From: Podarcis vaucheri | Lineage: Eukaryota | Assembly (NCBI GenBank): GCA_965113315.1 | Contig: OZ220365.1 | Strand: one strand, 5' to 3' | Length of the DNA: 64,000 bases | Shown: one piece after another, positions 4,681 through 60,909 of the stretch | How the letters are laid out: every line of letters starts with the position of its first letter | Numbering within the stretch: position 1 is the stretch's first letter | Made by a program: the position numbers and the translations under genes | Notes under the pieces: model-generated | What the model saw: only the letters and a program-made list of their open reading frames with translations | Databases searched by the model: none | What the model was told of the DNA's origin: nothing

Positions 4681-4807
4681 CAGGCATAGGCCCTCCAGAT
4701 GTTTTGGGACTACAACTCCCATTATCCCTGACCACTAGTCCTGTTAACTACGGGTGGTGGGAGTTGTAGTCCCAAAACATCTGGAGGGCCGAGTTTGCCT
4801 ATGCCTG
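4681..4807. mobile_element. Palindromic hAT (Buster/Charlie-like) MITE
   Basis: TIR caggcatagg / cctatgcctg, internal palindrome, perfect 8-bp TSD gtgtatac (4673-4680, 4808-4815). Confidence 0.92.
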
Positions 4808-5130
4808 GTGTATACCAAGACCACCATCACCATTTCCTCCTTCATTCACCTGGAACATGTGCAGGGAGGAAAAGTGTGGATAACTTGGGGGGGGGGTCAA
4901 ATATGTATCAAGTAACCACACCCACCTTTGTGGATGGCAAGGACTGGAATCCTTCTAGATTGGAAGCATCATGTTGAGCTTGAGCATGAATGATTGAGGA
5001 AAAACTACATTTTTGTACTACAATTGGGTTAAATGTAGTTAAATACTACAATTGGGTACAAATGTGTTCACAACCTAGTTATATGATGTCAGTAATTCTT
5101 ATCACAGCCCACCAAGGTATTTCAGTTTTA

Positions 5131-5672: not shown

Positions 5673-5807
5673 CAGTGACTCTCAACCTGTGGGTCCCCAG
5701 ATGTCGTTGGACTACAACTCCCATCATCCCTGAGCTCTGGCCTTGCTAGCTAGTGGTGATGGGAGTTGTAGTTCAACAACTGGGGACCCACAGGTTGAAA
5801 AAGTCTG
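5673..5807. mobile_element. Palindromic hAT MITE nested in the SINE
   Basis: cagtgactctcaacctgtgggtcccc ... ggggacccacaggttgaaaaagtctg; 8-bp TSD ctctaagg (5665-5672, 5808-5815). Confidence 0.88.
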
Positions 5808-5811
5808 CTCT

Positions 5812-5975
5812 AAGGGTTGTCAACCTAGTCCCTACGGCCCATTTAGGAATTCTAGGTGGGCGGTAGAGGGTTCTATGAATCCTCCTTCCATCGAGCACTG
5901 GTGGGCAGTAAGGAAATTTTACCATCAGAATGATGTATTAGTGGGCGGTAGGTATAAAAAGATTTACTACCCCTG
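5812..5975. mobile_element. Second hAT MITE (CAGGGGTAGTCAACCT-like TIR)
   Basis: agggttgtcaacct ... gatttactacccctg; internal gggcggtag repeats. Confidence 0.7.
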
Positions 5976-6376
5976 CTCTATATACTACACCACGTTGACT
6001 CTCAGAATCCTAAATATGTCTACTTGGAAGTAATTGCTATTGAGTTCAATGGGGCTTACCCCAGGGAAGTGGGGTCAGGATTGCAGCCTCTCCAGAGAAG
6101 TTTGCCTGGTGCCATCTTTGTGGTATTTTTGGGAGATGCTGATGATCCTTCTGTTCAACCAAGCCTTTTAAATAATTGGAGTCATCTGAGCTTCTCAGTT
6201 TTTAAATAAGGTACTAGTTTGGGGACTATATTATCATCTTTGTTGTACTTATGGTGTTTTTGATTTTACAGTTTCATGTCTCATTTGCATTCAGATTGTT
6301 TACTTGATTATTATTGTAAGCCACCGAGAGAACTTCGTGTTTGGGGTGACATACAAATGCCATAAATACATAAATA

Positions 6377-6635
6377 TCGTATTTTTTGCTCTATAAGACT
6401 CACTTTTTCCCTCCTAAAAAGTAAGGGGAAATGTGTGTGTGTCTTATGGAGTGAATGCAGGTTGCGCAGCTATCCCAGAAGCCAGAACAGCAAGAGGGAT
6501 TGCTGCTTTCACTACACAGTGATCCCTTTTGTTGTTCTGTCTTCTGAGATTCAGAATATTTTTTTTCTTGTTTTCCTCCTCCAAAAGCTAGGTGCGCCTT
6601 GTGGTCTGGTGCGTCTTATAGAGCGAAAAATACGG
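6377..6635. mobile_element. Mariner-like MITE, short form
   Basis: TA-tcgtattttttgctctataagac ... gtcttatagagcgaaaaatacgg-TA; same termini as 54895-55688. Confidence 0.9.
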
Positions 6636-8516
6636 TAAGTTCATGACATTGTGTGTATAACATCTATAGCTCATTGCCTATGGGCAGTGTAAGGTTCAAA
6701 CAATTGCTGTCATGATTTCTCTGGTGCCAAGTGCTTGACAGACCCAGGTCACACCCATATACTAGCAGCTCTCCTGGTTGCTTATTGGATACTTAAATCT
6801 ATTTCTTGTCCAATTTTGCTCCTTTGGTGTTAATTATGAAGTTGGTTATTGCTTTAACTTGGAATAGGTCCCCTACTCCCTGCTGTGGAAGATGGTTAAA
6901 AAATGCTGAGGGTATGAACCGGGCAGTCAAATGACTATTAATAGAAGCTACTTGGCTCAAAGGAGGAGAATGTGAAGCTTTATAGACGAAAAGACAACTA
7001 GAGAGAAGCAGAGGCTGAAAGGGAAAAGAGGGAAAGGAGCAGCAAGAGGTTGGGGAATGAAAACAATGCATAACTGGCCTTGGCCAACAGAAAAGCTTGC
7101 AGAAATAAAACAGAGGAAGGAAATACTTCATCCCATTCCTGTTCACTGGACAATGATTTCCTGTGTTCACTTCTGACACACCTAATCATAAAAGCACACT
7201 GTCCTTACGTTCTGGTAATGCAGCTCTGCCCTCTGTCTTCTGAAAGTCAAGATCTGTTGAACTACTGAAACAGACTTTATTCACTGAATTATTCAGTAGA
7301 ATATTCCAAACACAATCCCAAATCCAGTACTAAGCCCCATTTTCACAAGTTCATAGGTGGTGGTTGTATCCAATTAGCTGCAGGTTTTGGCTCCTGACAA
7401 ACTTTCCAGCACAGAGAAAGGGCAATAACCTGCACTAATTGGATACAATGCAGATGATTAAAGGTCCCCCCTCCCCCCCCCAGCTGCATAAAGCCGCTAA
7501 ACAATTCCTGTATTTGGCTTGTACCGTGCTATTTTCATTTGCGGAAATTGACTCAATGGCTCTTCTCTGGTGTCAAGTGCTCTGATTCAACATCCCTGCC
7601 TGTCCTTCCCTGCATTTCCAAATAATGGAGTATTAGCAATATTAGTAGGAATGGCACAGGGTAACCTGGGGATTCTTGGAACTTGACTTCACAATGTCCT
7701 TTATTCGTCTCTGTCTGTATCTAGATGCCTGCTTTTCTACATCTGGTTTATTGCTGCAATGTTAGGTGCCCCCCAATACTATTACTACTACTCCTAATAA
7801 TAATGCATCGAGCATAGGGGAGGGGCAAGTTAGCAACCATTCGTGTTTTGGATTATGCGACTCAAAATAATTGTGCTAGACTGCAATCTGGCATTTAGGC
7901 TAACCATCATGGGGACAGTGATTGTCCATCTATGGTTTGTGGGTGCCGGATATTATTGAAGTAAAAAGCAATTTCTGCGATCACAATGGCAAGGCTGTTG
8001 CAATTGTTCATTATGACAATGTACATATGACATATATTCCAAATTGGGACTGTTCACATATATTGCAAACGCGCTGAAGAACCACCTTAGGTGGTCATAG
8101 CATACAACCAGAAGCAACGAAATGTGTAGCATAAAGCCCAGGTGCTCTTGCAATCCAGCTTCCTTTACAACTGTTAGCATACATATTCAACAAACCCTGA
8201 AAGTTCTGCTCTCTGAGGCGGCAGCTTCCATGCTGCTGCCTCTGTAATGAAATCGAGTTCTTCAAAATACAGGCCTCAAACTGTTCCTCTCCAGCTCACC
8301 TTGCACACACTTAATGAGGCAAGTACAGGTTTAACTTAAGCTCTGTCCTGTAAGGATGGGGATGGGGATTCCATTCTGTTTGCATTTCAAAGCAAACTTA
8401 CCTAATTCGCACCCCTGAGACTGTACACAATCTAAAATGCTGCCATCCTTCAAAACCCATACATCTGAATTTTGTGCTTTATGTGCACAAAACTGCACTA
8501 GCAGAAAGTGCATGAT

Positions 8517-11470: not shown

Positions 11471-12149
11471 GAGCAACCGTTTCCCCCATAAAAACTGTTT
11501 AAACCAAGGGTGGGAGGGCTGCACTCCCCATGCAGCCACTTGCCAGTGGTAGTTGGGGCAACAGATGTGGGGACTCTTATCTTTGTACAGGAGACGACAG
11601 TCAGGCATGATAAAGCCAGTCCCTTTCTATGCATACATCTCTCCATCCAGGCAAGCAAAAGGCGTTATTTGAATTCAAGGAGGATACATCCTAGCCAGGC
11701 AAAAGAACTGGAGAAGCGTGTGGAGGGGGGTCAGTGAGGGGAGCGACCTGGGGAGGAGGCATGGCCCAGGAGAGCCCCAGCAGCTGGACAGAGATGTCTA
11801 GAGAGCCATGTTTGCTACCCCTGGGCTTTGAGGTTCCCCACCTATGATGTAAACCAATGCAAGTCTTGCCACAGAGGAATGTGAAACAATTCTTTCTGAA
11901 GTCAGGTTAGCTCTCTCTCTATGAGTCTCATAGTGGGTGTCTTCCAACCAAAGGCTCTGTGTGCATGTTTCTTTTTTCCTGGTGCCACTTGAACGGACTG
12001 GTCCTTTTGCCATGTGAACTGCTAACAACCCCAGTCACTATCCGGCGTGCAAGCCTGATGGAATGGATTGTGCTGAGTCAGGATAGCCTAGCCTCGCACA
12101 ACTCTTCATTGCTATGCGGGGGGGGGGGGGCTCCAAAGCACAACTGGCT

Positions 12150-13950
12150 CCGCTATCCAATCTGTGTGAGGCTTGGCATCTGCTCTAATTCGCTTCCCTC
12201 TTCCCCTCCCCCCTCGCCCAGCCTGAGGTAGCAAAAACTGACAGCGAAGCCGACGAAATTCTCGTCTGCGCGCTTCGACGCTGCGAGTTTTCGGCGGCGC
12301 CCGGCTACCCATTCTGGCCGGGACGAAGGCCGGGAGGGGAGCCAGGCGGCGGCGCGGCGGCCCCGAAGGGAAGCCGCGCTTCTCCCGGCGGGCCCTCTCC
12401 GAAAGCCGCGCGTCTGCTGGCGGGCCGTCCTCTGGCAGCACCTGCGCCGCTCCCGGCGGGCGGCTGGCAGCCCCGCGGGAGTGGGCGGAGGGCAGCCTCG
12501 CTCGCTTGGCGGGAACAGGGAGGACGAGGCTGCCTGCTGCCGGCTCCCTCCGAGACCGGAGAAGGGGGAGAGGCGGAGAAGAAGCTGTGGCGGCGGCAGC
12601 TGCTGCCGTGACTCGACCCCAAGCAGCGGGGAGCCGAGAGAGGAGCTGCTGCGTGCAAACATCGCCACAGGGACAGCAGAGGAGGGGGCTCCGGTTTATG
12701 TGAGGACTGAGGAACAACACACACACACACACAGCCGTAAGGCAACGGGCGATGTTGGCGGCTGTTTCCCAAAGGCGACGGGAGGGCCAATTTGCCGCCA
12801 GAAATTCGAGAGAGTTTGTACGCCGCCTCGGGAACTGAGGGCAAGAATGTGCTTCAGCCCCACCTTCGCCGCCGCCACCTCGCGCTCTGCCCGCCGCTTG
12901 CCCTCCTCACAAGCGAAGCTGACTGGAAGTGAAGGGACGCGGGTTGCTGCTGGTGGTGGTGGTCGCGCTGTGCTTGCGCCGCGGGAGCGAGCTCTGCCGC
13001 TGCTGCTGCTGCTCCGGCTGCCGCACCTGGCCTGGGCCGCTGGGGGATGTGCAGCAAACGCCGCCTCCTGAACTCCACTACTTCTCCCGCGCGCTCTACG
13101 GCTCCGGCTGCTGCCCGCGGTCTCTCTCTCTCTCTCTCTGCCTCCGTCGCCCAGGCGCTGCCCGGTTTGGCGGGGAAGACGCCAAGGAGACTTCTTGCTG
13201 GCGAAGGATAAGCGCCAAGCGGTGCCATAGCCGGAGCTAGGAAGGAGGAGAAGCGAATCCCGAAGAGGAGGCGGGGGAGCGGGCAGGCGGAGAGCAGGAG
13301 TGGAGCGGGCATCTCCCTCCCTCCCTCTCTCCCTCCCTCCCCGCCCTCCGTCAGCAGGACTTTGGGCTGCTGGGCTGGAGCTGCCTTGCCATCGCGGAGG
13401 AGAGCCCTGCGCGTGAGTATGGAGCTCAGCGAAGGGGCTTGGGGACTGTGCCGCCTTCTGGCGCGGCTCGGGCACTTTGGGGTTCTCCTCGGCTCGAAGG
13501 TTAGGGACACACTTTGGGGTGGGTGGGTGCATGCATGTGTATGTATACGTGGGCACGCGCGCGCGCGTGTTTGGCGTGCAAAGGGGCGCCTCTCTGCTTC
13601 TCTTCCTGGTGCAGTTTTGCGAAGGCACACGCGCGCACACACTCCTTCTCCCTCTCTCTCTGCAGTGCATTGTTCGGGAGGCTGCTGGAGGCTGCCATCC
13701 TGCGTGTGCGCACTTACCTGGGAGTAAGTCCCATTGTGTTCCAATGTGGGGATGCCTCCGCGCTCTGGCTCCGCCGGGCAGCTCTGGGGGTTGCTGAGGG
13801 CGCTGTGGAAGGGGCGGGCGGGCTCTGTGCATTGTTGGGGTGAGGATCTGTGGCAGAGATCGGTGGGAAAGGGGCTTGGCAACCACTTAGGAGGGTAGGG
13901 CTTGGTGTGCGCCCTGCCCCGGAGACTTGGCTCTGACGGAGAAGCAGAGA
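12150..13950. promoter_or_regulatory. CpG island / promoter of an unidentified gene, probably transcribed on +
   Basis: Abrupt GC- and CpG-rich block in a CpG-depleted background; GC boxes; CCAAT at 12157 and 12787; AP-1 tgagtca at 12074; splice donors at 12737 and 13413. Confidence 0.9.
12930..13412 (+). other. Putative non-coding first exon (start uncertain)
   Basis: Lies in the CpG island and ends at a strong donor cgc|gtgagt (13413); no convincing protein ORF. Confidence 0.5.
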
Positions 13951-16489: not shown

Positions 16490-16745
16490 ATTTATTTTCT
16501 TACATTTATATCTTGCCTTTCTTCCACAATGGAACCCCAGGTGGTATGCATGTGTTTCTGGTATCTGAAGAAGTGTGCATGCACACAGAAGCTCATACCA
16601 ATAACAAACTTAGTTGGTATCTAAGGTGCTATTGGAAGGAATTTTTTTATTTTGTTTCTGAAGTGATCACCTTTCAGGCACTGACTACACTCAGTTCTGC
16701 TTAGTTTCAGCAAGGTGATGGCCTCACGTGCCTTCAGAACATAAT
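16490..16745 (-). mobile_element. Probable 5S rRNA-derived SINE relic, interrupted by a Penelope fragment
   Basis: aagtgatcacctttcaggcactgactacactcagttctgcttagtttc resembles the reverse complement of 5S (aggcggtctcccatccaagtactaaccaggcccgaccctgcttagcttc); AT-rich tail at ~16490. Confidence 0.4.
16561..16652 (+). mobile_element. Penelope-like element fragment with degenerate hammerhead motif
   Basis: Homologous to 52441-52590; flanked by direct repeat tgtttctg (16553-16560, 16653-16660); core GAAA reads AGAA. Confidence 0.75.
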
Positions 16746-21961: not shown

Positions 21962-22320
21962 AATGTTAGTCATATTCACCGCATGAGTTTGTTGGATATC
22001 TCTCTGATATAATTATGTCTCTTGCACAATACAAAGGACACAATGTCTCTCTTCTAATAGTAGCAAGAGCTCTGGCAGATAATAAGCCCAGTTACACCTC
22101 TGCTACACAGCATAATACTACTGATTCAAAGTAATGGTATTATAATCAGTAACAAAAATGAGTTTGTATCACCGCTCACACCAAAGAGCTTTAATTACTT
22201 ATTAGCCCTATATGACATTTAATTAAATAAATGCTAAAAATAACATTTGCATAATCAATGTGACCACTAATATTTATTAAATGTAACAATTGTGTAATCT
22301 CATTAGTATTTGAATATATT

Positions 22321-22680
22321 AAAGGTAAAGGTACCCCTGACCATTAGGTCCAGTCGCAGATGACTCTGGGGTTGCGCGCTCATCTCGCTCTATAGGGCAA
22401 GGGAACTGGTGTTTGTCCACAGACAGCTTCTGGATCATGTGGCCAGCATGACTAAGCCGCTTCTGGCAAACCAGAGCAGCGCACAGAAACACTGTTTACC
22501 TTCCGTCCTGAGCGGTACCTATTTATCTACTTGCACTCTGATGTGCTTTCAAACTGCTAGGTGGGCAGGAGCTGGGACCGAACAACGGGAGCTCACCCCA
22601 TTACAGGGATTCGAACTGCAGACTTTCCGATCAGCAAGCCCTAGGCTCTGTGGTTTAGACCACAGCACCATCCACGCCCC
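22321..22680 (-). mobile_element. Sauria SINE, full length
   Basis: Colinear with 2859-3244; TSD tatttgaatat(a/g)tt at 22307-22320 and 22681-22694. Confidence 0.92.
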
Positions 22681-22695
22681 TATTTGAATATGTTA

Positions 22696-22838
22696 GTATA
22701 GGTGGTGATGCTGATCATTTAACAAAGTTATGTATAGATTGCCTTATAAATGAATGCAAAAAAAGAGAATATGTTAGTATTCATTTATAAGGTAATCTAT
22801 ACATAACTTTGTTAAATGATCAGCATCACCACATATAC
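22696..22838. repeat. 60-bp-arm inverted repeat (hairpin)
   Basis: 22696-22755 is the reverse complement of 22779-22838 with 2 mismatches. Confidence 0.95.
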
Positions 22839-23854
22839 AATCAAAGTTGGCATTGGAAAAATTAGTTTGAGGGAGCACTCAGATAATTAGGACAATGTAG
22901 AATAATTATTTTGTAGGAATAAAAAGATGGCAAACACTATCATTAACTACGGGAATACCTCTATTATTTTACGTGGTTTCTTAATAGACAATTTTTAGGA
23001 TCCTTATATTCTCACTTAAGATGTATATGATTGTGACAAAACAGAAAAATGGAAAATGGGTAATTTTCTAAAGATAAACCTATGACTTGTTGTACCCTTA
23101 AGCATTATCTTTGTGAATAATACAGTGACTCAGTTTAGCTCTAGAAAAAGCTAGAGCGTGCTAAAAAAAATCAAATAGTGTACCAATGTAATTGATTCCA
23201 CCTCTTTCATATCACTGTAGTTTTCTTTTTCTTTTGAAGTAATAGCGGAAGATAAGAACAATACTTTATTTTAATTTTTTGCCCCCTGAGGCTGTGATCT
23301 TAAGCACACCATTTGGAAGCAAGTTTTGTTGATATGGTAGAACATCCTTCATAGGAAATGCATTGAGGATTAAGGTACAAAGAAACAAACTGAGAGAAAA
23401 TTGAACTACTTTAAGTGAAAACAGTCTTGAGCAAAGAGTCCCATTAACATTGATCTGAAATTTACTGAGCAATTATAATTTTAGGACACGTACAAAAGGG
23501 TTTGCCATTCATCCTGCTCTGCAGGAAAGAAAGTGCCTCCATCCAAATGTCACTTTGATCCTCACTCAACCAAGGGTACATCCCTGGGTGAATTAACTGT
23601 TAACTAATCAGGCAACGTAGTTCTGACAGGAGATATCTGTTCTTTATGCAGCAACCTATTTGAAAAGTTATGGCTGAGTGGTGCTTATCTGTCCTTTATA
23701 TTTAGTGTGCATGTTACTTGATTTTGGGAAGGAGACCTCTGCTGTGTTTAACATTAATAAAAATTATGGTAGCTAGTAAAAATCTTGATTCATCTATTTT
23801 GACTGCATTTTCTATTTGCCATGTTAGTCAGCTCAAATACATCCTAGTACAGTT

Positions 23855-26276: not shown

Positions 26277-26412
26277 CAGTTATAGGCAAACTCAGCCCTC
26301 CAGATGTTTTTGGACTACAATTCCCATCATCCCTGACCACTGGTCCTGTTAGCTAGGGATGATGGGAGTTGTAGTCCCAAAACATCTGGAGGCCCGAGTT
26401 TGCCTATGCCTG
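26277..26412. mobile_element. Palindromic hAT MITE (same family as 4681-4807)
   Basis: cagttataggcaaactc ... gagtttgcctatgcctg; TSD gtatagat / gtatacat. Confidence 0.92.
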
Positions 26413-26629
26413 GTATACATAGTCTGCTGGCATAGATAAGTATGTTGCTTAGGAATGATAAATAACACCTTCTATATATCAGGATAATACACCACTATGC
26501 TGGAAATAAGATAAAGTCCATGCTCATTTTTAAATAAGCTCAAAGCGTTTCTAATTTTGCACTTGTGATCATCTAGTAATCATATTCAGTTAATGTACAG
26601 AAAAATGTATACCTATATTCCAACTAATA

Positions 26630-35924: not shown

Positions 35925-36059
35925 CTGGGGTGCACAATCTGTGGCCTTCCAGATGTTTTTGGACTGCAACTCCCATCAGCCCCAGCTGGAATAGCCAGTG
36001 ATCAGGGATGATGGGAGGTGTCATCCAACCTCTGGAGGGCCACAGGCTGTGCACCCCTG
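35925..36059. mobile_element. hAT MITE (caactcccatc core family)
   Basis: ctggggtgcacaatctgtggcc ... ggccacaggctgtgcacccctg. Confidence 0.8.
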
Positions 36060-36226: not shown

Positions 36227-38595
36227 TTATGATTTCAATGGAAGAAAAGTAAAGACAAATGCAAGAAGCCATACTATTTGCAATTCACCCTTCGCTTCTA
36301 GCCTTGTTTATTTTGAATTATAATAAATTATGTAATTGTTGATAGGAAAAGTCACACACATGCATGCCCACTTCCATTTATCCTAATGGTACTGCAAAGT
36401 TGTATTGCAGCCTCAATGAAAATGTGGGTGTGCTTTCAAAGCCTTGGCAGCCTGTAGTGACCTTCAGGAAAAATGAAATGGTCTGCTGGCTAGGGAAACA
36501 ATTGAGCTGAAACCACTGAGGCGCAGTCAACTCAGAGATAGACTTCCCAAATTAAAAGCTGTTAGCAACAGCTCCAAACAAGATTGGAAAGTGAGAGCAG
36601 AACATATTTCTTGAAGGTGATTTATGCAATGAATAAGGCATGATCAAGAGCACAAACCTCTCAGAAAGAGGAATACCTATTAAACTGAGCAACCTGGACT
36701 TTAAACTGAACATCACTGTCATCAAAAGTCTGGGCACAAAGTGGTGTCAGAATCACAATTTGTTTAAACAAATAGATAAATGCAAACTGATGACCTTTTA
36801 ACACACAGGGACATAAAATACATCCGTAGCTTCCAGTAATTAATTTGCAACAAGCACATCCTGATTTCCCCCCTCAAGTATCTTTTGACAGAATGTTCAC
36901 ACAAGAGCATTAGATATTTGTAATGACTTTTCCTGATTATAATGTATCAGGCAGGCAACAATGGAGTTTTCACTGCATTCCATATTAATGTCAATTAGCT
37001 TGGTGTAACTGGGAAGAAAAGGTCAAGGCTTAAATTAGCCCACAAATTCCCCATAAATTAATAAATGTTTTAATATGGATAAGCACATAAAGACCCAAAT
37101 AAGCTTAAGCCCCAAAGAAACCCTAATTATTTCAGTTCTCTGCAACAGAGAACAATCCATCTAAAATGTTGGCATATGTTTTAGGAACTTTCTAACCCAA
37201 TCTTTGTTGTTTTTCTGCCCAAAATGTAAAATATTAAAGTGTTTGAAAGATGTCTGAGGAAGTGATTATGTATGTATTGGTTCAGAATGTGGCTCTATCC
37301 CAAATTTTGAGCTGGATGAATTTGTCTTCTGAACCAGGTAATATCATTCCTGTATGATATTCATGTTAGTGTTTCCCTAAAATTCAGCAAAGTGAAGGCA
37401 AGATATTTAAAATAGAAATATTTGTACTTATATTTAAAACACCAGCAATCAATCAGGAAATACAGGAGAGAAGATTCAAATAAGAATAAAACAACAACAA
37501 AACTAGATATATTTTTTAGTATAGTGCTTGTAAATTTGTTTTCTTTCTTTTCCATTCAGCATATCACATACCAAAATCCCAAGTGAAATTTCCTTTCTCC
37601 ACATATATGTATTTTCATGTTCTTTCTCTCACACAGCAGTCTTCCTAACCTGCACCAGGCCCTTTACTCGTCCCTGCAGAAATTTCACTGTTGAATTCTG
37701 TTTTAATTCTGTTGAAAAACAAATCATTTTGTAGTATTAATTCTGAAAATTTGTATTACTGACACAAGGCAGCTTGATTTCGCATCCTGGAAATGAATCA
37801 CATGAAGCATTCACTTAATTCTCTAAGGACATTTTAAGACAATATAACACACCTTTGAAAAGCTTGCTTTAGTCATTTATTTGTTGATGTAAATGTTGCA
37901 TTTTATAGCAGCCTTTCTTAATTTAAAATGAATTATAACAGCAGAGTGAAGAATTCCCTATAAAGCGGTGGTGTACTTCATTATTTAAGCAGTCCAACTT
38001 CTGTTTGATATTGCCCCATTTATCACTGAGGATATTTTATCTTTATTGTTCCTTAAAAAGAGCAGTCACCTGTACATTAATGCCAATTCCCAGCATTTTG
38101 TTACACGAGCATGACCAAGAAAGGGAACCTAGGATGGGTTGTGTAAGTAAAGAGGCGCACTATGTAGATAGAAACAGGCTTTATTTTCAAATGTTTGGGT
38201 CTCCAATAACACAAGGCAGGTCTAATCCCACCACAGTGATGTCGGAGTGCATCCCTTTACATTTGCAACCTTAAATGAATAGATGTTATTTATTCCAAGT
38301 GGGAAAATGCTGTTTTGATAAGAATGTCCCTCCATTTCTAACACAGAGCTCAGTGGTGGAACTTGACATCTCAAATTTCAGTGGCACCTTGGTGATGCCA
38401 AAATCTGGCATACCCCCCACTGCTCGCTTTCCACTAGACTTCATAGTTGCAGCACCTGGTATGGTACCCTAGAACCTCTGCTCCTGGGGCCACCAAACAA
38501 GTTGTGCTCCCTTAGAGCCACCTTTGCTGAGCTCTCCCTTAGGGTTTTCATAGGAAGAGCATACACTATAATTAAATGTTAGGACCATTTAATTA

Positions 38596-38949
38596 CAGTG
38601 GTGCCCCGCAAGACGAATGCCTCGCAAGACGAAAAACCCGCTAGACGAAAGGGTTTTCCATTTTTCAATGCGCTTCGCAAGACGAATTTCCCTATGGGCT
38701 TGCTTCGCAAGACGAAAACGTCTTGCGAGTCTTGCGATTTTTTCCGCTTCCCCCCTTTTTTCTAAGCCGCTAAGCCGCTAATAGCCTTTTAGCCGCTGAG
38801 CCGCTAAGCCTTTAATAGCCGCTAAACCGCTAATAGCGCTAATAGCGCTAATCCGCTAAACGGCTAATAGGGTTGCTTTGCAAGACGAAAAAACCGCTAG
38901 ACGAAGAGACTCGCGGAACGGATTATTTTCGTCTTGCGAGGCACCACTG
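38596..38949. mobile_element. Young Tc1/mariner (Tigger/pogo-like) MITE
   Basis: TA-cagtggtgccccgcaagacgaa ... ttcgtcttgcgaggcaccactg-TA; CpGs retained; internal gcaagacgaa and ccgctaa repeats. Confidence 0.92.
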
Positions 38950-39159
38950 TATAGAAGTGGAAGTCTTGGGGAATAGAGTTGCATACATCCATACCCAGTT
39001 CCTGGTAACTGTAGTCCTTCCCCCACATAGCTATTATTCTGAGCATCATGTCTTTTCAAGTGCACATGTGCCCTAAGTCCACACACCCTGCTCAGTCCAG
39101 GATTTATAATTCAAAATGCAACTACAGCATTCCTGAGATCAAGCCTCTGCTTAAATACC

Positions 39160-42600: not shown

Positions 42601-44775
42601 AGCGTCATTTGCATTTGATTCCCCCCCCCAATTGCATTGAGGTCTTTGTTGCAGCCTGCCAGATTCCTAGCACCCCTCCCAGACCCTTATATAGTAAACA
42701 TAAATATTCCCCACCTCTGTCTATCTCTACTTCTGTCATAGCAACATTCAAACCATAAGCTGTTGGTCCAGACAGAGTGGGATGAAGGAAATATATCCTT
42801 GTGTATTGTCTCAGCAAATGATTTTATTCTCTGGAATCATTCTGGCGATTCAAGTCACATGGCTGAACAGTGCTGTGCAGTAATAAACAAATTTCTTTTG
42901 AACCCACATTGGGAACCCACAAATCTGGGCTCAAGATCTTGAAATATCACACTTGTATGGCAACACGTGTTTGCATGCATGTTAATCTGTAACGTGTGAT
43001 CAGGGACATGGGTAGACTTGCTGACACTGAACACTCCTCTCCCTGAGAAAAAAACTTCTGCAACATGAAAATTGTTCCAGTGATATAAATTCATATTAAA
43101 TAGGCTGTGAACTAGGCAGCTAGAAATCCATGTCGGGCAGTCAATATTACACACCATTCTCTTACAAATTTGTGGAAACATGCTGCACGGTTGCACATCC
43201 TGTTCCCTGTTGTATATATCTAGGTCATAGCTACTCCCTTGATCAACACTGTATATGAATCATGTAATTAAATGGTCATGATGGTCCACAGTGTAAAAAC
43301 TGGTAAAGATTTACAGTAGCTGTTAAAAGGCTCAGTCAATTACCTACCATCAAATGTTTTATTTGCCTGGGGGTTGCTGGTTTTTTTTACACCTAACCTC
43401 AAGAATCAAGTAAGCAAAGAGAGGCTTATTTTCAGTAACATATTTACACCTTCAGCCTCTGTGGTTTTTTTACGTTGGGATAAGATCAGAAATAAGCCAC
43501 CAATGTTTTATTTAAAAAGAAAAGCTTCTTTTTGCAGGGGAAGTTAAGGAAACATAAGAGATGTCAGGCCTTATTCCTGAGAAGGTTAGTATTTTACAGA
43601 TACAAATGTAACAATGTCCTTCCCATACAGACAGCTGAAAATGATTTAAGGGTGAAAGCCAATTGTTGCCCTTGTGCTTTGCAGCCAGTGAAGCTGTTTG
43701 CTGATGATGGAAGAGGACAGGAGGGATTCCCCCCTCCCCCGATTCCCCCTACCACATACAGGGCTCCATGAAAATAAGCTCCTGGGAGCTGAGGGACTGT
43801 CCAAAACAGGGGGAAAGGAGAATAAGCAAAGAATTCTGCCCATCCTCTTCCATTTGAATCCCACCCACCTTTTTCAATTTGCTTATGATATGGAGGATTT
43901 CAGCTACATTGTAAGATGCCACACCATGCAACCAGAGCTAGAGATATTCAGTTCTGATACAGAGTCTCAATGTAATCTGACCATCTATGTGAGGTGGATT
44001 TCAAACAATACTGTTCACTGTGTGGTACCATATGGAAATGTTTTCCAAAGGCCTTGGTATGTTTAAATGGAGATGGAGGTGGTGTGCTTCACTGTCTGAA
44101 GTGGCTCTGTTTCTGATTACGTCATATGTGAGCAATAAACAAGTATGTTTCTGTATTTATTTATGTATTCATTAGGAATACTTACAAACCACTAAACATC
44201 ACAGTAATGCTACAGTGCTGTATAACAATAAAAACTATACAAGTAAAACAAAGATTAAGAAAAGTTCTCAAATATCATTAAATACTGTCTGCAGGTATGG
44301 TTATGGAAACCCAGTAAAAATAAAGACATTTTAAAGCATCTAACAAAATACTTTGACTATAAGTTTTATCCGAAGATCAGCATTCTTGATTGGTACAAAC
44401 AACTCAGTATGCAGCTCCAAACAGATACTTCTCATATGTCATGACAGTGTCACCTTCTGTGATGGATAATGCTACCAATACAAATTTGGGTAGAAGGTGT
44501 TCTGCTGTTTGTCCCACATAGATTAGCAGACTAATACATTATTTAGTGTTTCCATAGTGTTCGCTTTCTAGATATTTTAAGAATGCCCTCATGTCTGGCC
44601 AAGACTTCAGAGCCATGTTTTCTAGACATCATCAGCATACAGAGGACTTTTGGTGGCCCATAAATGTCTGATTTGTAGTGAAATGAGGAAATTCAAGGTC
44701 TTGGATGCATCATTGTGGATGTTGCTTGTGTTTCTGATTAAGACAATATTTTCTGCAGGGCAGCAGACATAAATT

Positions 44776-45103
44776 AAAGGTAAAGGTAAAGGGACCCCTG
44801 ACCATTAGGTCCAGTCGTGGCCGACTCTGGGGTTGTGGCGCTCATCTCGCTTTATTGGCTGAGGGAGCCGGCGTACAGCTTCCGGGTCATGTGGCCAGCA
44901 TGAATAAGCCACTTCTGGCGAACCAGAGCAGCAAACGGAACTGCCGTTTACCTTCCTGCCAGAGTGGCACTTGACATACTTTCAGACTGCTTGATTGGCA
45001 GGAGCTGGGACCGAGGAATGGGAGCTCACCCCGTCGTGGGGATTCGAACCACCAACCTTCTGATCGGCAAGTCCTAGGCTCTGTGGTTTAACCCACAGCG
45101 CCA
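44776..45103 (-). mobile_element. Sauria SINE with small internal deletions
   Basis: Colinear with the other copies; (ACCTTT)n tail; no clear TSD. Confidence 0.9.
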
Positions 45104-48100
45104 TATTGACAAAACAAAGAATAGAAATATGCTTCCCAAAATTCCAGATGTACCATGCACTTGACCTCCCAGCAGCGGAGTCGCTTCCAGTTACCAGCAG
45201 GGATAGGGGCGAGGCAGTGAGGAGGTCAGTGCTGTGCAAGCACATTGGCAGAGACAATCCAGCACTCCTGACACTGCCACCTTGTGCCAGTAAGTGGCAG
45301 AAGGATAGCATGGGAAGTTGTATTGAAAGCTTCTGGGAGGTCCAGGATAATGGCAAAGGTCTGAACCCTGATTGAAATATATCAAGAAAATCAGTATCAG
45401 TTTGCAGGAAAGCACCTGCTTGAACATTTTATCTAGGAAGATAAATGTTAAGCACTGGCTGAAGATGTAACTCACACCGTCCAGATCCCCAGCAGGTTTC
45501 TTTATGACTTGTCATTCCATGGCCTCCTTTAAATAGTCAGGATCACCCCTTGGACCCAGCTGGGCACTTTTCGTATGTTTTAACCTAAACTAATGATTCA
45601 TGCAGTAAGTCTTAAACCATTACATTATTTAGATTTGACAACACCTAAGCCCTGACCCTGGCACTCCTTGTGGCCTTATGACAAGCTCTGCAAAATGCTT
45701 CTGAATAGGAGAGTGTTTGTCAGACTATGTCCAAAGGATCACTCGGTTCCTGCATGAGAAGTAACAGCAGACAGTCATGGCTGCCACAGTTTCCCAGGGC
45801 AATTTGCCTGCTTCAACCAATCTTCACTTGTAATGTCAGCTGCCATGGAAAGTTAGGCATATGAGATGACTTTAAGTTCTTCTGGAATGAAAGTAGGGAT
45901 TGTGGCCAGTGCTCCATGTGAATTGAACTTCCAGCCTACAATATTTCCCTGTCTCCAGAGCCCACTGCAATCCATATGTATTCCATGGTGCACGTTTAGG
46001 GGTTGGAAAGCAGAAAAGTTGACTCGGAAATGGTTCCTTTGGAATATGTTTACAAACCATGGACTAGTGAATGCTAGTCAGTGTGGTTGGTTTTACAACA
46101 CGTTTGCAAGAAAGAAAGGCATACTATATAGCACTTTTATAAACTGAATTCATATTGATTTTCTGGAAACAATTGGCACAGTATTCTGCTTTGTATAACA
46201 ATGGATATGTGCAAATGCCCCCATGTATGAATACATATAAAAATAAATTCTGCCATTGCCTTCTTATAACTGAAATATTCTGTTTTTTAAAAAACCAAGC
46301 CATCCTGCTCTTCACTGCTCCTGGGGTGAAAAGTATAATTTGTTGGAGGCCATTAGACTTAGACACCATTCACACAATAATGATTTTTATAATTACGTAT
46401 AGAAAAGATTGTGAATCCTTTTTAAGTACAATGAGCTGCTAATTATTCTGAGCCTGCGGAAAGAACAATAGATTAAACAATTTGTCTTTTAAAGCTTACA
46501 GTGCTGTATTTGGTAGATATAGTGGTTGATAAGGAAAATACTTTTAAAACACAAATCATGCAGTATTTAATGCTTCTTTGAAAACTGCTGTCTTCATGTT
46601 AATTATAATGGATCTTAAAAATGTAGATTGTATTTGAAAATATCATTTAAGATTTTACTGACAGCATACTTTTAAAGTGTATTTTCTACTGTTGCCTGAG
46701 AGGGCCAGCAACAGAAAGATTTATGCAACATTATTTACATACATTTTTTGCAATTCCTTTTTAACAGTTAAATAATAGGAACAATTTTATATAATAAACA
46801 GCTGGTAAACCTGCACTTCAGGGCACTGAATTCATCTAAACTTAACATCCCTGCAAAGTGATTTATACATTTATTTTCTTTTATAATAACACTGAATGGT
46901 CTTTGCTACTTCAAACTGATTGCCAAAGGACAGTTAGTTCTCACCCAAACTGTGGCAAAAATAACAAGGGTGCTGAAATTTGAGCTTTTCAGAAGGATAT
47001 AGAAACATGCAATTTACACTTGTCCCTTTTAACACTGTGCTTACTGTAGCTACTCTGGCCAAATTGCCTTTTACAAGGAGAGCTATTTTTGTTCTTACAT
47101 CATAGGCTGTATTGTAGCTCTACATGAATTACAAAACCCATAATCTTTATTTTCAAAATGATGGCACCACTTTTCTTCAGTTACTGTATTTACTGAATTT
47201 TAAGTTATAGCTGAGATTGCAGAGCATATTACAGTTCTCCAAATGGAAGAATTTCATTTGCAATTAAAGTTTTTGAAGTCTTTAATGCATCTGTCAGAAT
47301 GAATGACAGACTCATTCAAGGTTCCTCTTCAATATAGGTGAAATAAAAATTGTCACAGCAGGGTTCTTTTGGGATGGGTGGGTGGAAATTAAGGTTATCT
47401 GCAAACTTGGCCAAGGTATTCTGAAACTTTTGAAATTAAGTGCTTGCCATTGCCCTATACAAATGTGATATCAGTTTGGAAGTATTTATTATGTATCATT
47501 TATTTCATAATTAATGCCAGGTATAGGTTCATCATTAGTACCATATTGGTCGACCAACTCCAGAATTCTTTTGATATATTTGTTCAGGTGAAAATTTAAT
47601 TTCCTTTTATCACATAAATTTTGTTTGTTGTTTTTAATGTTATAGGGTAATAAACATCATAGTACTTGGGTTTCCTATGAAAACATTTGTGCTTGGGGGT
47701 CACTGAGGAAACTGAGATCCACGGAGAAGGGAGTGAAAGTATACCATGACTAATTTAAGGTCCCTGATGTCTTCAAATCTGGAAATGTACAGTTTGGTAG
47801 AGGCTGCACATATTAAGTCCTTCTTGTACCAGGGTATCATTGACTATGATGGATATAGAGTGCTGGCATCTTTATGCAATTAATGTTCACACAAAACCAT
47901 GGTAGGAAAAAAAGGTTTAAGATTCCCTTCCCTATGTGATATGGCTTTTACCTGCTCATGCCTGCTAAGATTTTCTTTTTAACCTGATGTATTTGCAAGT
48001 AATGCATTTAATGTCACATCTAGTTAGTGGCATAGATGTTCAAGAAAAAGAACCCACTTCAGTATATAAATCTGAGATGTGGGCTCTGGATCATGAAAGC

Positions 48101-52132: not shown

Positions 52133-52440
52133 TATGTCACTATCTGAGTTGAAATGGGAATGTGCCGCCCCCTGCCTCCCCTGTGCCCCGCCCCCTCCAG
52201 TTCTGCCATGTGCTAGAACTCTGGGAGCATTCCGTGAGGCATTCCCCTTCACTGGGGAAGAAGTGGAAGTGTTCCATTGTGCAGTGGAAGTGGTGGTGGA
52301 GCAGAGAACACTCCCATTTTGCTTCAGGGAGTGTTTTGGAAGACAGTGTTAGCGGTAGGGTGGCCTGAGATGAGTGCTTCATCCTGCCACACTAGTTAGC
52401 CAGCTTTGCTCACAGTTCTATCTTCTGCTGGCTTTTCTCT

Positions 52441-52590
52441 TAAAGACCAACTACGGTAAGTTAGTTCTTGGTATGAGCTTTCGTGTGCATGCACACTTCT
52501 TCAGATACACTTCAGTTGGTCTTTAAGGTGCTACTGGAAGGATTTTTTTTATTTTGACTATGGCAGACCAACACGGCTACCTATCTGTAA
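52441..52590. mobile_element. Penelope-like element insertion with partially inverted structure
   Basis: 13-bp TSD ctggcttttctct (52428-52440, 52591-52603); inverted segment 52441-52510 followed by a forward segment; taaagaccaact / agttggtcttta inverted overlap. Confidence 0.8.
52471..52508 (-). ncRNA. Minimal type I hammerhead ribozyme motif
   Basis: Minus strand GUAU-CUGAAGA-A-GUGUG(CAUG)CACAC-GAAA-GC-UC-AUAC: helix I, core CUGANGA, helix II, GAAA, minimal helix III, CUC cleavage triplet. Confidence 0.8.
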
Positions 52591-54619
52591 CTGGCTTTTC
52601 TCTGTTATATTTCCTGAGTGTACAGTAACAAACAGTACCTATTACTAGAGAAGAAATTAGAAAATAACACAGTTTTCATCCCTCTCTGGGAATAATTGGG
52701 ACCATCTCCAATAGCCCATAGAATGCTGATCTTACACCACCTTAGATTTTTGTCCACCTTGTACAGTTTTGCCTGGTTTGACTGTAAATGGCTTTTTAGA
52801 GTCTTAGGCAGAGTTCTTACCCATCACCTCGTCCTTTGGTTTGTTTGTTTTATTGGAGATGCCGAAGATTGAACCTGCAATATTGGACATGCAACATGTG
52901 TTATAGCAATTAACTAGATGCCTCAAGAATTTGGGTTTGACTGTTTCTTTATGGTGAGTTCACATGGTACGATTTGTCCTTTTCATTTACCTATTGAGAA
53001 CCATCCATTATTTTTTTCAGTGCACACTCTAAAATTAACCTTTTTATTACTGGAAGGCTGGTGTTAATACCTTAAACGCCCTAGAAATTTTGATTCAGCA
53101 TACAGCCTGCCTGACATTTTCCACTTCAGAAGACCTCAGGTCAATGTGTTGTGGCAAAGCATATAGCTCTAGTGGCATTTCATGGCCTTCAAATAGTTCA
53201 TGTCATTTAAACATTTCATGACATAAATGTTAATTTTTCAGTGTGATCATTTCTGAGGCATGACATATAATTGAGATGCTGCTTTGGCATAGCATAGTTT
53301 ATTAATACCTAATGAGAAGATAGAAGTATTTTGGTGCAGAAATTTGAAACAGGTTCTGTATTTTACAGCCTAACATAGGTTGATAATGGCTCAAAAGTAT
53401 TTTCACTTGGGATTTTTATTGTTCTTCCAACAGGAATAAATCTAGCTCTCCCCTCCTGCTAGCAGTACATTTCTCATAGTTTGATAATCCAGTCTTACTG
53501 AGCTCTGTATCCCTTTCCTCCCATGTGAATGGCACACAAATTTGTGACTCAAGTCGGCCCATCAAAGTGCAGAGCTGTGGATTGCATTGTATTTTTGCAT
53601 CTAGGTTCTTTGCCAGAAGGCTGACAAAAATTAGAAACCTTTCATACATTACTTCAGGCAAGACTAGATTTGCCAGGAGGACTTTGCATCCAATCACAGT
53701 TTCCTAACAAGGGTACTTGTATGATAAACACAATTGCTGCAATTCACCTGTTATAATCTTAGGTGTGCATTTCAAGCATTGTATGGATACATTTAAACTT
53801 GTAAATATGTGAAGTTGTCCTTATTGTCTAGCATGCCATTCACATGAGTGGTGATCTCTGCTGCATTTCCTATATTTTCTCCATGAGCGTTTGTTTTCTG
53901 CATCCTTTTTTCATATAGGTATGAATATTACTGCACATTATAACATGTTCAGTGTATCTTAACAACTGGCCGTTTAGCTATACAGTGACTGAATACCTGA
54001 TAGGAAGGCTGAGTTTTGAAAGCACAAGGAGGCACTTGCACTCCAATCATAACATTGGTTAAGCTTGTTTTCATTGCAGTAGATGCCAATTAAATTACTG
54101 ATTTTCATAATTATAATTCAGCATGGTAAGAGTCGATAATGAATGTTGTCACACTCAAGCTAAGTTATTACTGTATAGGAGCTCAGGTCTTCCTTCTGTT
54201 GATGTACTAATCCAAGAGTTTGCAAACAACACATTATTCATTTTTTTAAATGTGGATTTCAGCAGTTTACAATGATATAAATTCTACCACATGTTGAATT
54301 GTTTATAGATTGAATGAGCTAAGCAATGCTGAAATGTGTCAGTATTTTGGTAAAATCACACATTATCTCTAGTAAAAAACTCTTTCATTTGAGGAATCTA
54401 TATTACTGCCCCGAAGAGACTGGAGGCACAGCAGTGTTTTAGGCTGCTCAGCCTCCTTGCCTTACAGCTGATGCATGGGGTAGTACAACAGCTACTTTCT
54501 TGCATGTTCTCCAGCCTCTAGCTAGCCCCAAAGCTTCAATTCAAGATATTTTGGTCTGGATTGGAGAGTGTGGGAGAGAGTGCAGGAAAACAGGGGGAAA
54601 ATAGCATTCAGAGGCATTC

Positions 54620-54704: not shown

Positions 54705-54894
54705 TAGGTTCTCCATAGGAAATGGCAATTTTGTAGAGCACTTTTGGACTTTGATTGTGCCACATGGCCTGCAAGCACTTCCCATAGCCTGCTACTAAAA
54801 GCATATTTTAACCTTTGCTGACTAAACTGACGCTGCTGTTCAGGTCTTGAAAATAGTTTGTTTGTTTATTTGTTTCTGTTTCTAAAAGTATGTA

Positions 54895-55688
54895 CCATAT
54901 TTTTCACTCTATAAGACACACTTTTCCCCTCCTAAAAAGTAAGGGGAAATGTGTGTGTGTCTTATGAAGCGAATGCAGGCTCCATGGCTTCAGCGAAAGA
55001 AACACGAAGCCTCCAGTGCACACCGACCCCTCTCGTTCTCCTGGCTTCAGGGATAGCCACCAGAAGCCTCCGGAGTGCAGCGGGAGTTCCTGCTGCACTC
55101 CAGAGGCTTCGTGTTGCTTTCTTACATGTCCTCCAGCCTCCAGTGGCCCAAAAGCTTCAACTCAATATATTTTGGTCTGGATTGGAGAGATCGTGGGAGA
55201 ATGCTGGAAAACAGGGGGGAAATAGCATAGAAAGAAAATAGAAAGAAGCCCCTCTCGCTTTCCTGGCTTCAGGGATAGCCTCCGGAAGCCTCCGGAGCAC
55301 AGCGGGACGTCCCGCTGCACTCCTCCTGCTTCGCGTTGCTTTCACTGAAGCCTGGAGAGCGAGAGGGGTCGGTGCGGACCAACCCCTCTCATTCTCCTGG
55401 CTTCAGGGATAGCCGCTGGAAGCCAGGAGAGCAAGAGGGATTGGTCCACACCGATCCCTCTCGCTTTCCTGGTTTCGCTTCGCTGGAGAGGTGCTGCGCA
55501 GCTTTCCCTCTCTGCGCAGCGCCCCCTTCAGCGAAGCGGGAGGAGAAATAGACGGGGCTCTGTTTCTCCTGCCGCTTCGCTGAAGGGGCGCTGCGCAGAG
55601 AGAGAGAGAATATTTTTTTTCTTGTTCTCCTCCTCTAAAACTAGGTGTGTCTTATGGTCGGGTGCGTCTTATAGAGCGAAAAATACTG
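54895..55688. mobile_element. Mariner-like MITE, long form with internal repeats
   Basis: Same terminal sequences as 6377-6635; three ctggcttcagggatagcc repeats; GC-rich hairpin at 55508-55602. Confidence 0.88.
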
Positions 55689-56896
55689 CCCACTCATATA
55701 TCAAAGCAGTGCACAACATATAATATTGTAAAGCAATACGAAATAATTGCAGGAATGACTGCCTCATCTAAGAAAAGTGGGGGGGGGGATTAAACAACTG
55801 AATAATAGACTTGTTGGCATGTTGTTGTTATATTCCTCCAATCTAAGCTAGATATTCTGGCTGGACGAGAATTTAATTGAATGTTTCCCACTTCCCTTGT
55901 CCTTGGAGGTTCGGGTGCTTCTAAAAATAAGTTTCTGATGGTTGGGGAACCCTCTGGAGCTGGAAGAGGAAATCAGCAGGGGGCTTGCACAAGCTGAGGT
56001 GTGTTTCTGCTCATACAAGAGCACCTTGGAATCCAAGCCATCAATTTTAAAAGCCATTTGCTTTATTTTTATTTGTGCCTGAAGAAAAGCTCTATAAATC
56101 TAAATCCCCTAAGCATTTTATTTAGGAACAAAGATCATACACAAGGATGATTTTGTCTTTTCCATTCTGAAAGTATGACAGTTAAATATTCTTGTCAGTT
56201 GCTCGAAGGATTAAAAATCTTATTAAAGCATCTGAAAGGGTGTTTTTTTCTCCCTTTTTTGCTGGTTTCCATCTCTGCCTTTCTCTCATTATTGGTTCTT
56301 TCTTTATAAATATTCATACTTTATCTAGAACTAATCGGTACTATGTTCTCAAATTAGCTGAGATGTTTGCCTTGGTGTACAGCCAATTAGCAGGAATCCA
56401 GGGATGTTATCCATTGACAGCTGGAAAGAGATCTCTAACAGCAGCATAAGGGGCTCCAGTATTACATAGTATTGGTGCATTAAGATTACATATTAGGATT
56501 TTAAACAGCATTCTGTCTACTGTTTTTAATTAGCAGTGTTTACTAGGAGAACATTGCAAAAAATGTATTCTTAAAACAACAGATAAAGGCAGATGTAACA
56601 GCTGTGATAGACTTTTGCTCTCCGGGACTACAGTCTGAAAATAGTGGCTTTGCACATTTGCAGCAGAAGCAAACTGTAAATGCCACAAAAGGCCACTTTA
56701 CAGCTCCCTAGAAGTTGTTTTACTCCTCTGTGGAGAATGTCAGAGAATCAACCATCTGGCCTGAAGATAGGCACTCCTCCTCCACTCTGTAGTCTTACTC
56801 CTGGTATACTCCCTGTGCCACTGTATCTGTGAACAGCTGTGGATGGTGGCATCTGGTTCTTTAGGTTCACAGGTAGTTGCTTGTGGGAGTCTTGGC

Positions 56897-58537: not shown

Positions 58538-58868
58538 CAGCCTTTCTCTGCCTGGATGGCAACTTCCATCAGCCCCAGCCAGCATAGTCAGTGGTTAGAG
58601 CAGACCTTTCCAAACTTTCCATGTTGGCGACGCACTTTTTAGACATGCATCATTTCACGACACAGTAGTTCAGTTTTATTAGCAAACCGGAGGTTCGACT
58701 AGCCCCTTTCCAGCCCTGGGAGGAGTGTGGGGAGCGTTCATGCAAGACACCTACACACTGCAGCCGACACACTAATGTGTCATGACACACAGTTTGGGAA
58801 GCTCTGGGTTAAAGGATGGTGGGTACTGCAGTCCAACAACTGTTGGAGGACACCATTTTGGCTGCTGC
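58538..58868. mobile_element. hAT MITE (caactcccatc core) split by a nested hAT element
   Basis: The core halves caacttccatcagccccagcc and gatggtgggtactgcagtccaaca flank the insert. Confidence 0.65.
58601..58806. mobile_element. Nested hAT (Charlie-like) MITE
   Basis: cagacctttccaaact ... agtttgggaagctctg; TSD ggttagag / ggttaaag. Confidence 0.85.
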
Positions 58869-60504
58869 TCATCTAACTGTAGTCCAACAGCAGTTGCAGC
58901 AGCCACCATCGTCTAGAGAGATTCCCTTGAGTGTGTTCACTGGGGGACGAGCCAATGCTGTATCCTCAAATGCTGAAACACTGCATGAGAGGATTCAAGT
59001 AGATGCTCTTCTTGTATAAAGTGGCAGAACCCTTGCTCTCACTGGCTCCCACTAGTGGCAGTAGAAGCATGGTAGATAATGGATTCAATCTTAAGGTAAG
59101 TTAATTTAAGGAAGTTTAAGAAAATAGAGTTTCCTGCTCCCTCCTCCCCTGCAGCCGCTTGCGTTCCCCTAAAAGTCTCTCTGGAGAGATGGGAAGCACT
59201 CATTAACATTGTGGAGTGGGGCACGGAGGGCTGCTGAGCAGTAAAATTAAATCAGGGTGTATCCGAGGCAGGAAAGTTCAGCTGAAATCAAGTCTGGCTT
59301 CCTTCCTTCCTTTATTTATAACTGTGTTCTCTTGAGAACAAATGTATGCCTTGAAAACATACATGCTTTAACTACTTCATGCTATCATGCTTTAACTACT
59401 TCATACACATTCCAAGTCAGTAAATAGTAGTGAACATATAGATGTTTTCCTAATGCTACTGATGTTCATTCCTTTCGTCTGCTTAGTGATGAAGGATAGA
59501 AAGCTCCCAAGCCAAGCACTGGAAATGTTGTGGTGCTTGGGATGCAGAATTATGGGTAGAACCTTTCATATCAAGGCTGACACCATCACTTTTATTGAAC
59601 AACACTGCATCTCAGTTTAAATGAAGATTTATTTATTTGTATGCTGTGAGCTAAATATACTCTCAAGGGGAGGAAGAAGTGGAAGCTTTTATTTTAAATT
59701 CAGTCTACTTTCCACTTATCAGCTTAGCTTCCCTCTCAAATACTGAGTTCAAGATTTCACTGGGAGGAAACATTTTAAAAAGCTTCTTTCCTAAAGCATA
59801 GATAATCTTTTCTATATAATGGCAGTCTTTTCAGAAGACAGGATAATGAATGCACAGGGCAAAGTGCATGTCCTTTAAAAAAATAAAATAGCATGTACTT
59901 CAATAGCAACTCATACATTTTCTTCTTTTTGCCTAATTGTCAAATCACTTTTTAAACTAAGGGGAAGAAGTAAACATTACATACAAATATGCGCAGCAAA
60001 GCCCCAAATGTTTTGAACCCAAACTAATATAAACATATTTTAAAGATTTTTTAAAAAAACAACTCAATATCTTTGGCACCTTACCCCAAATAAATTAAAC
60101 GAGGTAACTCAAAATAATTGTTGGAGATGTAGGACACAAAGGGCAGAATTACATACATTCTTGAGCTGCCCCAAAGTTCTGAATTTCTAGGCCCCTTATA
60201 CGTAGCAACTGCAAATCCACAAGTGATATTACTGGAATATATAAAAGAGGAGGTGAAATAATAGTTATTTTAAGCTGCAGAAACCTGTGTTGCCAAAAAC
60301 TGATATAAGAGAAACCCCCAATGGTAACCTGTTGATTTGGAAAAAAAATGTGTACAATATGATCAAATTAACATATTGTAGGAGAATTCATAACAAGCAG
60401 CCTCTACCCATGCTATCCCTGCCACTTATCAGCTATTCTTTGTTGTTATTCTAGTGGAGGTTACTGTGTAGAAGTGGATTGGATGGATAGATAGATAGAT
60501 AGAT

Positions 60505-60635
60505 AAAGGTAAAGGTAAAGGTACCCCTGCCCGAACGGGCCAGTCTTGACAGACTCTGGGGTTTGTGCGCCCATCTCACATCTATTGGCCGGGGGCCAGC
60601 GCTGTCCGAAGACACTTCCGGGTCACGTGGCCAGA
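60505..60635 (-). mobile_element. 5'-truncated Sauria SINE variant embedded in (GATA)n
   Basis: aaaggtaaaggtaaaggtacccctg..gactctgggg..ttccgggtcacgtggccag, flanked by GATA repeats at 60486-60504 and 60635-60672. Confidence 0.85.
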
Positions 60636-60790: not shown

Positions 60791-60909
60791 CAGCCTTCCT
60801 CACCATAGTGCCCTCCAGAGGTGTTGGACAACAACTCCCATCAGCCCCAGCTAGCATGGTAAAAAATCAGGGAGGATGGGAGATGCAGTCCAAAGCACCT
60901 GGAAGGCTG
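60791..60909. mobile_element. hAT MITE (caactcccatc core)
   Basis: cagccttcc ... ggaaggctg TIR with the shared palindromic core. Confidence 0.75.

Follow-up and report, generated by a model that had tools for sequence, protein, structure and literature searches.

The window analysed here is a stretch of 64,000 nucleotides of Podarcis vaucheri DNA (contig OZ220365.1, assembly GCA_965113315.1), in which two copies of a dispersed repeat family are located. The first copy, at 52441-52590, is an insert of 150 bp which is bracketed by an exact repeat: the 13-mer of 52428-52440 has its only other occurrence in the window at 52591-52603. This bears out an earlier note on this DNA, which had described a partly inverted insert with a 13-bp target-site duplication. 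Both copies are single, 35.8 kb apart and on opposite strands, and neither is part of a tandem array. The features of the two copies are as follows.

52428-52440, no strand assigned: left target-site duplication, of which the last 2 nt are shared with the element; the 13-mer is present in one copy at the empty site of run X8
52441-52511, minus strand: arm A, element in antisense, starting at a proximal 3' end and ending 3 nt upstream of helix I
52453-52457, plus strand: 5-nt insertion private to this copy, the placement of which slides by a base or two
52509-52511: 3-nt microhomology of arms A and B at the centre of the inversion
52509-52590, plus strand: arm B, element in sense, reaching the distal 3' end
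52513, plus strand: extra C in arm B
52514-52527: 14-nt inverted overlap, in which the start of arm A is repeated and inverted
52528-52590, plus strand: 63-nt extension, on the right side only
52591-52603, no strand assigned: right target-site duplication; its first 1-2 nt also match the element
16561-16652, plus strand: second family copy, un-inverted, beginning at the first base of helix I

The second copy is flanked by a candidate 8-bp duplication (16553-16560 and 16653-16660), and its hammerhead core is broken by changes of G12 and A13. Arm A matches this copy on the opposite strand. In addition, opposite-strand joints leading from 52457/52458 to 52514/52515 were found in all four sequencing runs that were aligned. 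As the second copy and these joints show, the normal order of the family is un-inverted, with the motif followed by the tail on one strand, and the insert is therefore read as arm A (antisense) joined head to head with arm B (sense). The two arms point the RNA 3' ends at the two duplicated sites, and each outer junction has 1-2 nt in common with the element. The 5-nt insertion near 52453 is missing from 98-99.7% of the DNA depth of the family. Its letters resemble those which follow the same 7-mer in the element tail (52567-52579); as a post hoc and weak suggestion, it may derive from a brief template switch onto the other cDNA.

Arm A contains, on the minus strand of 52471-52508, the motif that had been claimed to be an intact minimal type I hammerhead ribozyme. 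Letters and coordinates agree with this claim and all core features are present, here given in hammerhead numbering.

52508-52505 with 52474-52471, minus strand: helix I, 4 bp
52504-52498, minus strand: CUGAAGA, C3 to A9
52497, minus strand: unpaired A between positions 9 and 10.1
52496-52483, minus strand: helix II, a 14-nt palindrome of 5 bp closing a self-complementary 4-nt CAUG loop
52482-52479, minus strand: GAAA, G12 to A15.1
52479-52476, minus strand: AGCU palindrome, positions 15.1, 15.2, 16.2 and 16.1; helix III formable only between two copies
52475/52474, minus strand: predicted cleavage site 3' of C17 (52475), position by hammerhead numbering

The 4-bp helix I, the palindromic 14-nt helix II and the palindromic AGCU are each confirmed by this numbering, and the cut predicted between 52475 and 52474 agrees with it as well. 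The G10.1-C11.1 pair is present as G52496-C52483. Judged from its letters, the motif has every sequence feature of a minimal hammerhead, namely the core elements CUGANGA, GAAA and UH, the unpaired base, the palindrome at 15.2-16.2 and a monomer without helix III (Cervera 2014).

A search of both strands of the window with a type I descriptor gave a single match, which is this motif. Loose matches occurred in 10 of 300 block shuffles, and in none of the 300 was a helix I of at least 4 bp combined with a helix II of at least 5 bp. Within the sequence context pair probabilities of 0.41-0.48 were predicted for helix I and of 0.74 for helix II. A purely fortuitous likeness could be argued from two results: the Infernal-type search recommended earlier did not recover the motif, as none of the 37 Rfam matches (E<=5) is a hammerhead or falls at the locus, and the 38-mer does not fold better than its own shuffles (z -0.44). 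However, an equal match in none of the 300 shuffles and compensatory changes in a published homolog speak against it, and we consider chance to be practically negligible.

This homolog, the closest motif printed in Fig. S3 of PMC4209133, is the minimal hammerhead of the turtle Chrysemys picta bellii. It has the same CUGAAGA and GAAA, the extra base before G10.1, the G10.1-C11.1 pair, GC at 15.2/16.2 without a loop 3, a 4-bp helix I and a 5-bp helix II. Compared by eye with this one printed sequence, 2 of 9 pairs are changed in a compensatory manner, one in helix I and one in helix II, and none of the nine is broken, so that the helix covariation looked for by the earlier note is seen between lineages. 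Within the family the helices are nearly invariant and therefore give no further covariation signal. The motifs differ in loop II, which has 4 self-complementary nt here and 7 plain nt in Chrysemys, and at position 17, with C here and U in the turtle (PMC4209133). Most of the metazoan Penelope minimal hammerheads described in that paper are single dispersed motifs, as is the case here, and the turtle motif is not marked in Fig. S3 as linked to a Penelope ORF (PMC4209133). Core features and turtle homolog together support the Penelope-like minimal type I kind to which the motif had been assigned.

The autonomous partner with reverse transcriptase (RT) and GIY-YIG domains, which the earlier note had suggested looking for, is absent from the 352 window ORFs of at least 55 aa (out of 592 of at least 45 aa) searched against Pfam; this search gave two unrelated matches below threshold and neither RT, GIY-YIG nor a named host gene. 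Membership therefore has to be derived from the homology of the motif and the shape of the insertion, and by these sequence traits the insert likely belongs to the endonuclease-positive Penelope-like elements. A scan with the motif pattern gave no hits in viral contigs, three in prokaryote genomes (vs 5.4 expected by chance) and two in metagenomes; the latter five loci were dropped as homologs, as none has the flanks or helices of the motif.

The shape itself has a described counterpart in Pen2a of Adineta, where a head-to-head inverted and 5'-truncated copy with a tail at one end and a short target duplication is found (PMC3846280; overview PMC8557442). The inverted repeat overlaps by 15 bp in Adineta and by about the same, 14 nt, in the insert. 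In contrast, no ORF lies between the arms here, and the target duplication measures 13 bp instead of 8-10 bp (PMC3846280), whereas the one-sided extension has 63 nt compared with the 30-40 bp described (PMC8557442). A further related system is the Poseidon element PAc of Anolis carolinensis, the terminal repeat of which contains a hammerhead; its RNA has two start sites, uncleaved RNA serves as the template of the copies, and both strands are extended (PMC11167929). It differs in belonging to another sequence family and in its motif, and no ORF start is tied to the motif in the present insert. The Anolis protein is of the Poseidon clade, and the present family may be of the Neptune or the Poseidon clade.

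Reads or contigs from 4 of 24 runs were aligned to 52150-52900, namely the DNA runs X1 (organism A, possibly that of the window), X3 (organism B) and X8 (organism F) as well as one single-cell RNA run of organism F. Evidence for the locus consists of one contig per run and hence concerns presence and not fixation. Run X1 has both insert junctions. In X3 a contig over the right junction comprises just 15 insert letters, and organism B is for this reason not counted as a carrier. One X8 contig represents the empty site, 52150-52427 being joined straight to 52591-52900 with the 13-mer present once. Compared with the window, the flanks of this contig have about 10 substitutions in 590 nt and 5 gap letters. 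The insertion is young, because the organism F contig is without it and the flanks differ by so few substitutions.

This youth bears on the idea that the ribozyme was adopted by the host and cuts a local transcript. In its favour, every core position is intact and helices I and II are predicted to form in context. Yet the insertion is young and missing from the organism F contig, the core is intact in most of the family anyway, and the monomer cannot form helix III, which makes adoption extremely improbable. Strand skew near the locus gave no direction of host transcription.

A large number of contigs match 52150-52900 (10037 in X1, 3075 in X3 and 8277 in X8), nearly all of them on the insert, and the summed depth of the insert is 28,000-110,000 times that of the flanks in the DNA runs, a ratio which is not a copy number. 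The family has thousands of copies at least. Of the dispersed family of short self-cleaving elements proposed earlier, the contigs in three DNA runs uphold the dispersal and the high copy number but not a short family standing on its own. The sequence continues 5' of the motif (beyond 52511 in 36, 15 and 39 contigs of X1, X3 and X8, and in 157 reads), there are several ends and many inversion points, and the 5-nt insertion is private to this copy. Loose 3' ends were seen at 52592 in 66 X1 contigs. Other inversion or junction points are represented by 1-2 contigs each among those listed. A similar central junction also occurs at another locus, as seen in one X8 contig, thus the junction can recur. 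In run X23, 96 RNA reads run past the distal end at 52591 into one common sequence (agreement 0.83), which is either one expressed locus or the continuation of the parent element. The family may already have a name in repeat databases or may be listed among the reptile families of bioRxiv 2026.07.22.740005.

These data also bear on a non-autonomous element resembling retrozymes or SINEs, which would have masters of its own and tandem transcripts cut by dimeric hammerheads, and would be mobilized by a Penelope protein in trans. Non-LTR retrozymes are short Penelope-related repeats with type I hammerheads, dispersed as monomers in reptiles and other vertebrates (bioRxiv 10.64898/2026.07.22.740005), and for reptiles, retrozyme families with a mean length of 176 bp are reported to derive from Penelope (bioRxiv 2026.07.22.740005). 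The very high copy number of a short stretch and the clustering of 5' ends at the motif would suit such an origin. However, retrozymes are defined by tandem hammerhead units (bioRxiv 10.64898/2026.07.22.740005), whereas the present insert is single and inverted with a target duplication, and neither copy in the window is tandem. Besides, the whole motif is retained and copies do not start at the cut site, both the ends and the inversion points are variable, the sequence extends further upstream, and just one of nine Xenopus dimers was cleaved (bioRxiv 2026.07.22.740005). As the copies are single and variable in their ends and keep the whole motif, a stand-alone family of this kind is less likely, and we judge it to be very unlikely.

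Un-inverted normal order, varying ends and inversion points, the turtle homolog and the described head-to-head shape point instead to a Penelope-like stub and not to a fixed short self-cleaving family. With good confidence we regard the insert as a 5'-truncated, head-to-head inverted terminal-repeat stub of an endonuclease-bearing Penelope-like retroelement, the motif of which would cut only when paired and is probably silent here. For its formation we infer the following course, in which twin priming is deduced from the junction shape alone. The GIY-YIG nuclease would nick the two strands in a staggered manner, at a distance of 13 nt. Each of the 3' ends set free would pair by 1-2 nt with uncleaved element RNA and prime reverse transcription; for the bottom strand this would take place at the distal end, for the top strand about 63 nt deeper in the element. 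The two short cDNAs would then be joined via the 3-nt microhomology. The Penelope protein of Anolis nicks and extends both strands from two internal start sites on uncleaved RNA (PMC11167929), and the twin-priming mechanism fits because of these properties. The hammerhead would be inherited cargo, kept by selection in parent elements and decaying in dispersed copies.

The same element could have been inverted by another route, in which the cDNA folds back at the 3-nt microhomology, primes itself to form a hairpin and has one arm trimmed by a nuclease. Self-priming is argued for in PMC3846280 (the view of Arkhipova et al. 2013), PMC8557442 assigns the one-sided tail to nuclease resolution, and the central microhomology fits a fold-back. 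On the other hand, the outer junctions each have 1-2 nt of the element, as expected if target ends were primed on RNA, the Anolis protein extends both strands in vitro (PMC11167929), and the inversion point has no palindrome while the arms overlap only in part. Fold-back is thus a possible though somewhat unlikely route, and two-site priming on uncleaved RNA is preferred.

According to the earlier note the palindromic helix II, together with the palindromic helix III, could support dimerisation. An AGCU-type palindrome is indeed described as a route to helix III between two copies (PMC4209133). For helix II, cofolding speaks against the proposal, the 14-bp helix II duplex (-28.0 kcal/mol) being favoured over the active dimer (-11.1 kcal/mol) with a pair probability of 0.998 and helix III unformed, in a nearest-neighbour model without tertiary energy of the core; the turtle loop, moreover, is not palindromic. 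In this model the palindrome of helix II should be regarded as a predicted trap for an inactive duplex rather than as a builder of dimers. Helix II as a dimer builder was also rejected on geometrical grounds, as a 14-bp and a 4-bp coaxial helix could not connect two cores at the same time; this is reasoning and not computation.

In published assays cleavage was absent from single minimal motifs and dimers were cleaved weakly (PMC4209133), whereas for the Anolis motif cleavage is reported only with protein and as dispensable for insertion (PMC11167929). For cutting, the motif at 52471-52508 would require pairing with a second copy; no cleavage is therefore predicted for the lone motif, which is probably silent here. 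About 12% of the single-cell RNA run of organism F yielded 1604 reads, which map exclusively to the insert, in either orientation. The sole pile-up of RNA begins or ends consists of five molecules at 52439, and 52474/52475 shows none. As the library is a fragmented one and its reads derive from other copies, these ends say nothing on cleavage.

Among the positions listed, contig ends that run into unrelated letters accumulate at 52508, where helix I starts, in 61, 33 and 71 contigs of the three DNA runs (agreement 0.36-0.39), and the second copy begins at the same base, inside its candidate 8-bp duplication. To some extent this accumulation may be due to microhomology or to an edge effect of the reference. 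The family letters upstream of 52511 form a pyrimidine run ending in CAG, which is acceptor-like and lies one base before helix I; in D. virilis an intron ends at helix I (PMC4209133). By eye and uncounted, an AG is present shortly before helix I in several other motifs of Fig. S3 (PMC4209133). As an unlikely explanation, the hammerhead fold could act as a protein-bound boundary at which copying stops, and not as a mark for cutting the RNA, both target strands being primed on uncleaved RNA. A search of the open-access literature for such a copying-stop role of the fold had no result. If it were true, twin priming by a dimeric Penelope protein would be naturally recorded in thousands of stubs.

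Conservation of the core among the copies was judged from variants of at least 3% of depth, under an 85% likeness limit which hides older copies. The intact core is the majority state, and the only core position listed as variable is 52482 (G12 to A). In the three DNA runs this change amounts to 18.2, 17.3 and 11.7%, compared with 15.3, 13.2 and 9.4% for the change at 52483, the CpG partner (C11.1 to U, which still pairs with G). At this sole comparable site the excess conservation expected by the earlier note is not seen (12-18% for G12A vs 9-15% for C11.1U), and as the damaging change occurs at least as often as the mild one there is no sign of selection on the core in dispersed copies, as far as one site can tell. 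Position 17, C in this copy, is U in 25-30% of the family DNA depth, an allowed base.

Motif, reptile homolog and inverted shape have already been published, hence one further stub of a described kind matters little. The role of the Penelope hammerhead is called unclear (PMC8557442). A young family of thousands of copies with empty sites in close relatives and clean junctions makes the starts and stops of copying countable relative to the motif. A practical consequence is predicted for assays of trans dimers, in which the palindrome of helix II should trap inactive duplexes.

Several other repeats are present in the rest of the window. Dispersed hairpin repeats of 70-120 bp at 4690-4812, 5692-5814, 26295-26417, 35959-36028, 58552-58621 and 60824-60893 score against mir-5408 of Rfam below the gathering score and are likely a small transposon family. 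A dispersed repeat of about 400 bp (2854-3242, 22320-22680, 44774-45113 and 60503-60603) resembles the Sauria SINE of squamates, and from this likeness the host was classed as a squamate. At 54893-55690 and 6375-6637 there are two elements which are related to each other and have terminal inverted repeats of 29 nt, the longer one with nested palindromes. An AT-rich hairpin of 153 bp at 22691-22843 has 70-nt arms of 91% complementarity, and an element at 38585-38960 has 33-nt inverted ends around a short tandem repeat. Finally, a GC-rich island (65% GC) extends over 12100-13900; no gene was identified within it, and it is likely a promoter.
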